Of a stretch of 64,000 nucleotides of DNA, positions 18,550 to 34,478 are shown one piece after another. The notes beneath the pieces were generated by a model that was not told where the DNA came from, made no database searches, and saw only the letters and a program-made list of their open reading frames with translations. The translations under genes were made by a program, and so were the position numbers. Origin of the DNA: a virus; the IMG/VR virus record IMGVR_UViG_3300035682_000005. The stretch is one strand, 5' to 3'. The first letter of the stretch is position 1. Each line of letters begins with the position of its first letter.

Positions 18550-18651
18550 CTCCAACTTACAATATAAGTTATTGAAATTGTGTGCAGTTTTATGCTTGAC
18601 ATTCTTATTGGATATTGATACTATTATAAGACTGACGGAAAGATATTTTAT

Positions 18652-27484: not shown

Positions 27485-27526
27485 CCCCTAGTAGGTTCTC
27501 GTAGAGCTTACTAGGGGATTTTTTTA
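27485..27526 (+). terminator. Intrinsic terminator
   Basis: CCCCTAGTAGGTTCT-cgt-AGAGCTTACTAGGGG hairpin followed by a T run. Confidence 0.8.
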
Positions 27527-27601
27527 CCCTGCTAAGTATCTGTTTTTTCTGGCATGGAATAATTGTTGCACATCTCCAAAAAGGTGTGCTATAATGTTCT
27601 T

Positions 27602-27880
27602 ATGTTAAAACAACAGCTAGTAGGAAAACGAGTTAAGGGATCCTTCGCAGGGTTCGCCTATACAGGCACGATTATAGAGACGCAAGAATCAGACGGACAT
27701 TTCAATCATGTGATTAAACTTGATGAGAGCATGATTCTTACCACAAGGCAGTTAGACTACCCACAAAGGTATTGGGGATATAAGGCACAGCTGTTTCAGG
27801 GGCTAAACTATTGCACTGAGAATGCTGAAAGAGTCGCGGGTACTCCCGATGAAACTCGAATGACTATGATCCTTTTGTAA
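27602..27880 (+). CDS. Hypothetical early protein (SH3-like beta domain)
   Basis: TTGCAC-18-TATAAT promoter; VGKRVKGSFAGFAYTGTI; similar to 30555..30782. Confidence 0.55.
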   Translation: MLKQQLVGKRVKGSFAGFAYTGTIIETQESDGHFNHVIKLDESMILTTRQLDYPQRYWGYKAQLFQGLNYCTENAERVAGTPDETRMTMILL

Positions 27881-27890
27881 GTAGTTGATT
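27878..27890 (-). promoter_or_regulatory. IHF-consensus site
   Basis: Reverse complement AATCAACTACTTA matches WATCAANNNNTTR exactly; one-mismatch copies at 18565-77, 24198-210 and 24211-23. Confidence 0.55.
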
Positions 27891-28054
27891 CCAGTATGAT
27901 CCTAAAGATATTCATATGTTACATCTTCATAAAAACCCTTATATTTGCGCCACTTACGTTTCTTGCAATTATGGTAAATCTGGAAGAATAGGTTGACAAC
28001 CACTTGGATAGTGTGCTATACTAAGCCTATAGAGAATAAGAAAAGGTAAACAGT

Positions 28055-28354
28055 ATGCAAGTTCAGAAAAGTCTCCAAGCAAAGATTAGAAAGTTCGGAA
28101 GCAAGCAATTGCAAGAGGTCTCAGTTGATGACAAGCGAGTTCTTGTTTCGTATACAACTCCGGTTGCAGTTAGAATGGGAACAGAGTTGTTTGTTACTAC
28201 GCAAAAATTCAGTGTAACAACCTCTAAGCACATCACACACTACATTGGCGACCTTATCAAGAAGGGAGAAAAGTTCGATGTTGTCCGAGTTGACCACGAT
28301 GCAATCAAAAAGATCGTCCGTGAGACGTGTGGACTTGCGGTACCTTGGTCTTAA
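28055..28354 (+). CDS. Conserved hypothetical phage protein (SYxTPVA...SVTTSKHI type)
   Basis: Motif pattern; TTGACA-18-TATACT promoter at 27993-28022; AAGG SD. Confidence 0.65.
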   Translation: MQVQKSLQAKIRKFGSKQLQEVSVDDKRVLVSYTTPVAVRMGTELFVTTQKFSVTTSKHITHYIGDLIKKGEKFDVVRVDHDAIKKIVRETCGLAVPWS

Positions 28355-28773
28355 TAATTTTAATTGATGTGAAGAAGAGGTTTTTATGAGTCACGAAAGC
28401 ATTGAAAACATTATCGACAAAATCAACGAAGTAACCGACACGATTACCTTCCTTACCGCCGAGCTAGAAAATTGCTCCCTGTGGGGGAAGTACGATGAAG
28501 CCGACGAACTTTATGGAGAGCTTGTTGACGCTCGCCACGAATTAACGAAACTCGAAGGGATGCTGTAACATGTTAAACTCAAAAGAAACAAAAGATCGCC
28601 TTGCTCAACTTGCCAGCTACCGCGCCTTGCTTATGGATAAGTTGCAAGCCGACTACCTTAGCCCACAAGAGCTGTTTAGTATTCAAGACTCGCTGATGAT
28701 GATCGACACGGCGACGAAACAACTTACTGAATACTTGGAGCAGTTACAGAAGCCTATCTCATACTAGAATAGT

Positions 28774-28840
28774 TCGCACCTGACGAGTCCGTATAAGGAC
28801 GAAACGCCAGGGGTTTTTACCTTCCCCTGGCGTAGTGTGA
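28774..28840 (+). ncRNA. Type I hammerhead ribozyme
   Basis: Stem I TCGCAC/GTGTGA; core CTGACGA (28780-86); stem II GTCC-gtataa-GGAC; GAAA (28801-04); stem III CGCCAGGGG/CCCCTGGCG; cleavage triplet GUA ending 28834. Confidence 0.92.
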
Positions 28841-28853
28841 TAAATAAAAATAT

Positions 28854-28929
28854 GGAATCGTAGTTCAGTGGTTAGAACGCTCCCCTGTCACGGGAGAGGT
28901 CGTGGGTTCGAGTCCCATCGGTTCCGCCA
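28854..28929 (+). tRNA. tRNA-Asp(GTC)
   Basis: GGAATCG/CGGTTCC acceptor; anticodon arm CTCCC-CTGTCAC-GGGAG; GTTCGAG T-loop; encoded CCA. Confidence 0.96.
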
Positions 28930-28949
28930 TATTATGCAAAAAGGTTGTT

Positions 28950-29381
28950 ATGAAATATTTGCGTGAAGTCAGAGTGAAATACGGAAAGAAGATTCCACTG
29001 GTCGCGGCGATACGATCACCCCAACAGATTGCAGACTTCATACGAAAGAAAGTTCTTACAACTAACGCCAAAGAACATCTTGTCCTTATTTGCCTTGATG
29101 GCAATCACGATGTTATAGCATACAATCTACTAGGCATCGGCACGGCCACATCATGCACGTTCCATCCACGCGAAGTGTTTCAGCCAGCTATCGTGGCAGG
29201 CGCCGTCTCAATTATTCTTGCACACAACCACCCATCAAACAACCTTGAGCCAAGCAAGGAAGATTTACAAGTCACAAAGATTGCAAAGGAAGGAGCTAAA
29301 CTCCTAGGCATCAAATTGCTAGACCACATCATCATAACAGACACCGGACATTATTCACTACACGAAGCTGGTAACATATAG
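28950..29381 (+). CDS. RadC-like JAB-domain protein
   Basis: KEHL..ICLD, HPREVFQPAI..GAVSIILAHNHPS....PSKED, LLDHII. Confidence 0.9.
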   Translation: MKYLREVRVKYGKKIPLVAAIRSPQQIADFIRKKVLTTNAKEHLVLICLDGNHDVIAYNLLGIGTATSCTFHPREVFQPAIVAGAVSIILAHNHPSNNLEPSKEDLQVTKIAKEGAKLLGIKLLDHIIITDTGHYSLHEAGNI

Positions 29382-29941
29382 ATCTACGAGAATTGCGTAT
29401 CCGAGGCATATGTAAGTATCTAATATGGCTATGTAAAATAATTTGGAGTTATCACTTAAGCCCTTTATTTTACGTTGGATTGGAGCTTCGTTATATCGCC
29501 AAATTGTGATATAATAGTCCTATGATGAAGCAAAAGATGTCACAAAAACAAATTGATAAAATTTTAGAGATGAGTTTAGAACAGCTCCTTTACTTAAGTC
29601 GGATGTTTCGAGAGTTTGATGTAAACACTCTTTTTGCTGAATGTGTTGTGTGTGAGATTCAACGCAGACTGAAAACACACCGTTCCGAAGAGTGTGTAGC
29701 AAGTAATTAACAAAGGTGATACTATGAGACAAGCAAGCGAAACAGCCAAAAACAAGTTTATCCAAATCATCGAAGATACTGGTGTTGAGTTGACTCCGCA
29801 AGTAGTCCTTATGTGCATTGAACACGCTCGGCAAATGATGCTCTCTGGAGATGTATGTGTCGAAGCCTTCTATGAAGCAAAGAAGATCTTGATCGACCGT
29901 TGTGTAATGACTAGCGAAACAATTAACTAAAAGGTATCAAT

Positions 29942-30076
29942 ATGAAATACAAAGGACAAACTCAAGACCTTTACCTAGCTTATGTGAATGATTACCTCAC
30001 GGTAGCCCGATGTGCCGCCGACCACGAGATTAGCCAATACAGCATGTTGCGAATTATCAAACTTTGGAGAAAATAG
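29942..30076 (+). CDS. Small hypothetical protein (below ORF-track cutoff)
   Basis: AAGGT SD; [44 protein letters not shown]. Confidence 0.5.
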
Positions 30077-30077
30077 T

Positions 30078-30239
30078 ATGATCTATGAAGAAGCAAAGAA
30101 GATCGTGGGCAACCAACCCACATGGGCTCTTAAAAACATGGTCAAAGCCTTGCAGATGTTTGGTGGCTATATGAATACGCCAGAAGAGAACCTTCGACTT
30201 CAGGCAGCAAAAATTGTACTTAAAGGTAAAAGAAAATAA
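30078..30239 (+). CDS. Small hypothetical phage protein
   Basis: GGAG SD; [14 protein letters not shown]...[13 protein letters not shown]. Confidence 0.6.
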
Positions 30240-30554
30240 TATGAGACACCTTCCATCAGAAATTGCATCCGTCAAAGCACGTATTGCGCAGATTAAAAAG
30301 ACACAGAAGAAACTTGCGCCAGATGAGGTTGATTACTACACAAACCGCCTTGAGCTTGAGAGCCTAACAGAAGACCTAAAAGAACTTCAACAGCTCGACA
30401 TGATTACAGAAGAGCTCCATGCATAACGTGAGCAAAACGGATGATTGTGTTACACTCAGTGTGTTACCTTAGAGAAGCATTCGACATGGCACTTGATGTG
30501 CTATTAGCCGAAGGTATTGACGGAATTATTGAAGAGCTTGATGAGGACTAAACA

Positions 30555-31320: not shown

Positions 31321-31393
31321 GTCTCCTTCGTCTAGTGGCCTAGGACACCCGCCTTTCACGCAGGTAACACGGGTTCGAGTCCCGTAGGAGACA
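31321..31393 (+). tRNA. tRNA-Glu(TTC)
   Basis: GTCTCCT/AGGAGAC acceptor; anticodon loop CTTTCAC; GGTTCGAGTCC T-arm; one mismatch in anticodon stem; no encoded CCA. Confidence 0.92.
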
Positions 31394-34401: not shown

Positions 34402-34478
34402 GCCACCTTAGCTCAGTTGGTAGTAGCGACGGTTTTGTAAACCGTAGGTCAGGGGTTCAAATCCCTTAGGTGGCTCCA
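34402..34478 (+). tRNA. tRNA-Thr(TGT)
   Basis: GCCACCT/AGGTGGC acceptor; anticodon arm ACGGT-TTTGTAA-ACCGT; GTTCAAATC T-loop; encoded CCA. Confidence 0.95.

Follow-up and report, generated by a model that had tools for sequence, protein, structure and literature searches.

The DNA considered here is a stretch of 64,000 nt from a virus (IMG/VR record IMGVR_UViG_3300035682_000005; the whole of this stretch is referred to below as the window), in which what reads as a self-cleaving RNA lies between a cluster of small early ORFs and a tRNA-Asp(GTC) gene. The question raised by such a placement is whether the ribozyme serves the tRNA, or belongs instead to the junction between the protein-coding genes on either side. 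A sequence-only reading of the same DNA had preferred the tRNA, proposing a hammerhead-based, 5′-side counterpart of the theta ribozymes. Comparison with relatives points the other way: the element is quite probably a bona fide type I hammerhead of the kind found between phage genes, belonging to the junction of a small early ORF and a radC-like gene. Its link to the tRNA is secondary, and it is not a dedicated tRNA-trimming device.

The window encodes the T4-type baseplate proteins gp5, gp6, gp7, and gp8, and neighboring contig sequence adds gp2, gp32, gp59, and a DNA ligase. The nearest gp6 from a cultured phage, that of Pelagibacter phage HTVC008M, is 37% identical. At the nucleotide level, a megablast of positions 27500-30500 against cultured phages gave no match, and a blastn of 28000-29400 against the same set gave only tRNA-Asp look-alikes, so that no cultured phage appears to have a similar ribozyme. 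Relatives come from freshwater metagenomes, and the longest recorded contig in the cluster defined by the RadC protein is ~150 kb. By gene content and the provenance of its relatives, the source is an uncultured T4-like myophage of fresh water.

The motif itself occupies 67 nt of the plus strand (28774-28840), and can be read from the sequence as a complete type I hammerhead with the following parts:

28774-28779 and 28835-28840, plus strand: stem I, UCGCAC/GUGUGA, 6 bp including one G-U pair

28780-28786, plus strand: core positions C3 to A9, CUGACGA, agreeing with the conserved C3 U4 G5 A6 N7 G8 A9

28787-28790 and 28797-28800, plus strand: stem II, GUCC/GGAC, 4 bp closed by the loop GUAUAA, with the G10.1-C11.1 pair present

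28801-28804, plus strand: GAAA, comprising G12 to A14 and A15.1, with GAA at 28801-28803 supplying the conserved G12 A13 A14

28804-28833, plus strand: stem III, 10 bp (A28804-U28833, followed by CGCCAGGGG/CCCCUGGCG at 28805-13 and 28824-32) with a 10-nt loop

28834, plus strand: H17, an unpaired A as the last base of the GUA triplet, with cleavage predicted between 28834 and 28835

The cleavage site has the form expected of the class, an A15.1-U16.1 pair (A28804-U28833) followed by an H17 other than G (A28834). The minimum-energy fold of 28770-28845 is exactly the hammerhead three-way junction, in which loops cap stems II and III, leaving stem I open (-32.5 kcal/mol; z = -4.5, with 0 of 200 shuffles equally stable). 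A loose type I descriptor (the core, GAAA, and UH, with at least 4 pairs in stem I, 3 in stem II, and 4 in stem III) finds this single site in the window, compared to 0.01 per dinucleotide-shuffled window (3 in 300 shuffles). No ORF of 40 or more aa overlaps it. All of the features that the sequence-only reading had listed for a complete hammerhead between the early ORFs and tRNA-Asp(GTC) are thus present where it had placed them.

Some properties of the motif bear on how active it might be. The window has GUAUAA as loop II, where relatives have the GNRA-type GUAA. Stem I is a simple helix of 6 bp, beyond which unpaired UAG/UAA flanks are conserved. A tertiary contact joining loop II to stem I could not be made out in the sequence. 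Fast natural hammerheads have such a contact. Because stem I is short (6 bp) and no contact was identified, activity at cellular Mg2+ concentrations is a prediction only. Self-cleavage, leaving a 2′,3′-cyclic phosphate and a 5′-hydroxyl, is likewise predicted from the chemistry of the hammerhead class.

Rfam hammerhead models, which had been suggested as a check, score the motif at 19-21 bits at best, and none of the families (RF00163, RF00008, RF02275-7, RF03152) reaches its gathering score. The best scores are 19.1 bits for Hammerhead_HH9 (gathering score 52) and 20.7 for RAGATH-1-hammerhead (56.3), and the remaining members of the hammerhead clan score below these. In the HH9 alignment, stem III and its loop form a 24-nt insertion outside the model consensus; in that to RAGATH-1, loop II is a longer insert and there are extra bases in the stem III loop. 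Membership in the hammerhead class is accordingly claimed here from the core and junction as read in the sequence, with no particular Rfam family claimed. A covariance model of our own, built from IMG/VR hammerheads, was dropped, since the loci had been fetched with the core and stem II pattern of the window and its score would have been partly circular; the descriptor test with shuffles and the covariation described below were used in its place.

The genes and signals around the motif are arranged as follows, all on the same strand:

27993-28022, plus strand: sigma-70-like promoter, as a consensus match only (TTGACA, 18-nt spacer, TATACT, with an extended -10 TG; 11 of 12 consensus positions)

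28055-28354, plus strand: small ORF of 99 aa, first of the upstream unit (DUF8033/phrog_5643; Pfam PF26096 on the identical gene of contig L143)

28386-28568, plus strand: small ORF of 60 aa with no family, conserved in contigs L144 and L001

28570-28767, plus strand: small ORF of 65 aa (ORF65), its stop codon ending 6 nt short of stem I; in L144 and L001, too, the hammerhead follows a homologue

28835-28853, plus strand: 19-nt leader from the predicted cut to the tRNA, made up of the stem I 3′ strand and UAAAUAAAAAUAU, and containing GATAAATA (28839-46); this stretch is missing from L001/L124 and L152

28854-28929, plus strand: tRNA-Asp(GTC) with an encoded CCA end (ARAGORN; Rfam tRNA, 70.1 bits)

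28950-29381, plus strand: RadC-like JAB/MPN-domain gene of 143 aa (phrog_10276, 1.9e-35; PF04002 on all homologues)

A terminator-like hairpin (27485-27517) ends the preceding unit, upstream of the promoter. An early transcript beginning at ~28.0 kb, as had been proposed, is in keeping with the strong promoter match there. The 19-nt tRNA leader is also borne out, with both ARAGORN and Rfam starting the tRNA at 28854, and the predicted cut does separate the three upstream small ORFs from the tRNA-Asp/radC RNA, leaving an upstream mRNA that would end in the ribozyme hairpins. A larger RNA cassette of which the hammerhead might be one part was considered and excluded: ORF65 and the tRNA are separated by just 86 nt, of which the hammerhead fills 67, leaving no room for one.

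Relatives of this region were found with a RadC protein query against IMG/VR, JGI metagenomes, and a large protein collection, and the encoding contigs were fetched. Four lineages, that of the window included, have a hammerhead at this junction, between a small ORF and the radC that follows it:

Lineage A, the window and contig L143 (identical): hammerhead, tRNA-Asp, radC

Lineage B, contigs L144-147 (RadC 78% identical): hammerhead, 19-nt leader, tRNA-Asp, radC

Lineage C, contigs L001 and L124 (RadC 80% identical): hammerhead directly followed by radC; no tRNA, and 23 nt from cut to ATG

Lineage E, contigs L152/153 (RadC 55% identical): hammerhead directly followed by radC; no tRNA, and 23 nt from cut to ATG

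Lineage E differs widely in its stem III sequence, and has UAGCAC/GUGCUA as stem I and GUC as the triplet. The radC-like gene is the gene preceded by the hammerhead in all four lineages, while tRNA-Asp is found in L143 and L144-147 and is absent at this position from L001, L124, and L152/153. The linkage of hammerhead and tRNA for which a survey of relatives had been suggested does not hold up: the ribozyme does not track the tRNA, and its conserved partner is the ORF65|radC junction. Since two lineages lacking the tRNA keep the hammerhead, it is best described as a between-gene ribozyme and not as a tRNA device.

It is not found at every such junction. Contigs L148, L151, and L154/155 (RadC 53-61% identical) have no hammerhead there, with short gaps or overlapping genes in its place, so the element is dispensable. 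RadC-based scans also returned many distant loci with no hammerhead (L002, L003, L125-L141), and a scan of IMG/VR for the exact stem I and core pattern returned the L001 contig only.

The ORF65-hammerhead-radC region is mosaic. ORF65 pairs the window with L144 (0.82 vs. 0.62 identity), while the RadC tree has the form (A,(B,C)), grouping L144 with L001 (support 93/85). The RadC grouping would imply a loss of the tRNA in L001; with the two in disagreement, the tRNA may have been either gained in A and B or lost in C. This conflict suggests recombination near the ribozyme. Whichever way the tRNA was gained or lost, the hammerhead persists without it.

The same phage has a second type I hammerhead, on a near-identical contig ~8 kb before the start of the window (L156:18042-18114, minus strand). 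It is canonical (-33.6 kcal/mol), with the core CUGACGA, stem II GCCC/GGGC, a long bulged stem III, a GUA triplet, and a stem I related to that of the window motif. It sits in a gene-free gap of ~300 nt, facing a convergent gene.

Across the relatives, core positions vary only at the free position N7, as C or U, and at H17, as A or C. In an alignment of lineages A, B, and C (four close sequences), three stem III pairs show compensatory changes and 100% of cells are paired, with loop II varying from GUAUAA to GUAA. When L152 and the second hammerhead of this phage are added, two-sided changes appear in 8 of the 19 pairs, and paired cells make up 96.5% of the total. The sequences are few, and the four cells that fail to pair all trace to the second hammerhead, in which stem III is bulged and stands out of register with the others. 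The observed covariation and pairing were reached by none of 500 column shuffles, and slid controls gave at most 2. At the nucleotide level, the hammerhead is at least as conserved as the genes on either side (for the window vs. L001, its identity is 0.90, compared to 0.62 for ORF65 and 0.77 for radC). Such a pattern marks selection for an RNA structure whose catalytic core is fixed.

To place the motif among phage hammerheads at large, IMG/VR was scanned with a pattern of the core and the GUCC/GGAC stem II, which matched at least 120 contigs. Among the matches listed, the descriptor recognizes 136 distinct type I hammerheads at these loci. For these 136, the median distance from the stop of a co-oriented ORF to stem I is 7 nt, and that from the cut to the next start codon is 29 nt. 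The window motif, 6 nt after a stop, and those of L001 and L152, 23 nt before the radC ATG, fit this placement. In many phage hammerheads (L004-L123) the stop codon of the upstream ORF, often TAA, closes the 5′ strand of stem I as its final three bases, abutting CUGAUGA; with the stop codon within stem I, a terminating ribosome would sit on it.

A few of these hammerheads are joined to tRNAs. Among the matches listed, 4 of the 136 have a predicted cut within 1 nt of a tRNA start. In three (L098, 8394-8525; L102, 6872-7007; L103, 6628-6756) it falls exactly at the first base of a tRNA-Tyr. In the fourth (L053, 1359-1578) the hammerhead is wedged between tRNA-Gln and tRNA-His, and the cut leaves one extra G; this is G-1, opposite C73 of tRNA-His. 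A G-1 is characteristic of tRNA-His. In all four, the sequence that forms the 3′ strand of stem I also forms the acceptor stem, and their contigs are unrelated to the window. From these arrangements, hammerhead-based formation of tRNA 5′ ends probably exists in phages. No description of a natural hammerhead-tRNA linkage or fusion in phages was found in the literature searched. Two further hammerheads lie on the other side of a tRNA, on the same strand: one starts 5 nt after the 3′ end of a tRNA-Lys (L006) and one 6 nt after that of a tRNA-Asp (L048), with the predicted cut ~50 nt downstream of the tRNA in each case.

The Rfam scores below threshold, the lack of an identified tertiary contact, and the absence of the element from some relatives could all be taken as signs of a chance look-alike or a decayed relic, in which only the GC-rich stem III hairpin is functional (for example, in RNA stability or as a terminator) and the core is catalytically unused. 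Such a reading is very unlikely: all 11 consensus-fixed core positions and the UH site are kept down to a RadC identity of 55%, with stems that covary and loops that change, and the motif is rare in shuffled sequence. As for a terminator, the stem III hairpin has no U-run after it and gave no signal in the terminator scan. A dedicated tRNA 5′-processing ribozyme, as the sequence-only reading had it, would free pre-tRNA-Asp from the early transcript, with a late promoter in the leader allowing late transcription to bypass the hammerhead. The position of the cut is reproducible where the tRNA is present, falling 19 nt before tRNA-Asp in both the window and L144-147 (the leader differs between the window and L144 at one base, 28838), and the exact fusions of L098, L102, L103, and L053 argue that coupling of hammerheads to tRNAs exists in nature. 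Here, however, the cut does not make the mature tRNA end: lying 19 nt upstream, it leaves RNase P to form the 5′ end, and cleavage by RNase P would already sever the transcript. Nor does the ribozyme follow the tRNA, being kept without one in L001/L124 and L152/153, and exact coincidence of a cut with a tRNA start is rare in the class (the 4 of 136 above, among the matches listed).

The rest of this phage's complement argues in the same direction. Three of the four tRNAs in the window (tRNA-Pro at 18651, tRNA-Glu at 31321, and tRNA-Thr at 34402) have no ribozyme in front of them, and no tRNA lies near the second hammerhead in the ~19.6 kb of contig fetched around it. As for the late promoter, the TAAATA that had been noted within the leader is there (28841-28846), inside GATAAATA, and resembles a T4-type late promoter; GATAAATA is present in the window and in lineage B, and absent from lineages C and E. 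With T4-type spacing, it would place a putative late start 1-2 nt before the tRNA. Against this, the window shows no enrichment of NATAAATA starting with a base other than T (12 occurrences vs. 9.95 expected), and several copies are only 6-7 nt before start codons, an ill-fitting position for a promoter; the full TATAAATA occurs once, 27 nt before gp5. Taken with the conservation of the junction, these points make a ribozyme dedicated to tRNA processing improbable at this site. Where a tRNA follows, in two of the four lineages, the hammerhead may have a secondary role in its expression. Among the other tRNAs, tRNA-Pro appears to have its own sigma-70-like promoter (TTGACA and a TATACT-like sequence) ~35 nt upstream, within 18560-18650, unlike tRNA-Glu and tRNA-Thr, which begin 8-9 nt after stop codons.

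On the preferred reading, that of a hammerhead belonging to the ORF|radC junction, events would run as follows. In transcripts from the ~28.0-kb promoter, the 67-nt motif would fold as it emerges and cut after A28834. The upstream mRNA, with its three ORFs, would be left ending in the body of the ribozyme, including the GC-rich stem III hairpin of 10 bp, and in a 2′,3′-cyclic phosphate, and the downstream RNA would begin with a 5′-hydroxyl. For lineages C and E, this downstream RNA would be a radC message led by 23 nt. Where the tRNA-Asp gene lies inside the radC leader, as in the window lineage, the cut would yield a pre-tRNA with the 19-nt leader, followed by radC, and RNase P would still be needed to remove the leader. 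The analysis shows the motif, its fold, its conservation and covariation, and its placement; cleavage in vivo, the chemistry of the RNA ends, and any effects on RNA stability or expression would follow by analogy from hammerhead chemistry and from the work of Perreault et al. (2011).

That work provides the closest precedent. Perreault et al. (2011; PMC3088659) described hammerheads flanking single genes or blocks of genes in prophages, found that polycistronic constructs of ~2 kb were cleaved in vitro, and reported that cloned Agrobacterium tumefaciens ribozymes were active in E. coli. The element considered here is a further case of these phage intercistronic hammerheads. It shares with them (PMC3088659; Rfam clan CL00010) the catalytic core, the three-stem junction, and the open stem I, and also its siting between co-oriented genes, a few nt after a stop and tens before a start; they have been proposed to cut polycistronic transcripts into gene-length RNAs (PMC3088659), as it would do here. 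It differs from the known examples in coming from an uncultured freshwater T4-like myophage, distant enough from cultured phages that the nearest gp6 is 37% identical, in scoring below every Rfam gathering threshold, and in having, in two lineages, a tRNA gene inside the downstream leader.

Two other natural systems invite comparison. The HHphage hammerhead of haloviruses HF1 and HF2 likewise comes shortly before an early-gene start codon (13 nt), and the 5′ end of the transcript maps near its cleavage site (PMC3088659), whereas the window element is known here from sequence alone; HHphage is also a structural variant in an archaeal virus, which the window element is not. Theta (HDV-like) ribozymes (Kienbeck et al., 2024; PMC10879173) are, like it, small self-cleaving phage ribozymes beside a tRNA gene. 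They are of a different ribozyme class, however, and abut the tRNA 3′ end, so that the cut makes the tRNA end and the tRNA is their defining context (PMC10879173), while the window hammerhead cuts 19 nt upstream of the tRNA 5′ end and half of the lineages bearing it lack the tRNA. The theta-ribozyme paper makes no mention of hammerheads (PMC10879173).

The closest structural parallels on the tRNA side are the exact fusions from the IMG/VR scan, which share with the window element a type I hammerhead upstream of a phage tRNA on the same strand. In the fusions, the stem I 3′ strand serves as the acceptor stem, and cleavage would yield the mature 5′ end directly (or leave G-1, in L053); the window motif has a stem I of its own, outside the tRNA, and its cut would leave the 19-nt leader in place. 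It is conceivable, if doubtful, that tRNA expression in the window lineage has come to make use of a pre-existing hammerhead of the radC leader. Cutting during transcription, it would yield a short-leader pre-tRNA-Asp with a 5′-hydroxyl, released from the translated upstream message, and would represent an intermediate toward such fusions, in which a ribozyme would take the place of RNase P in forming the 5′ end.

A new mechanism of tRNA maturation in this phage is not established by these results. What they add is a well-supported hammerhead, with natural covariation, in a lineage of T4-like phages from freshwater metagenomes, and a natural comparison between phages that share this ribozyme at one gene junction but differ in whether its downstream leader holds a tRNA. 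The purpose of these ribozymes was considered still open in a 2019 review, the leading idea being processing into RNAs of different stability or translatability (PMC6765202), and the comparison could be used to ask how a hammerhead affects the RNAs on either side of its cut.

Among the other contigs from the scan, one viral contig has five hammerheads with an identical stem II (GUCCGUGAGAUUCGGAC), spread over ~4.3 kb (L092:1892-6200). An ATG is found within ~35 nt after four of the five, and several successive genes appear to be flanked by them.
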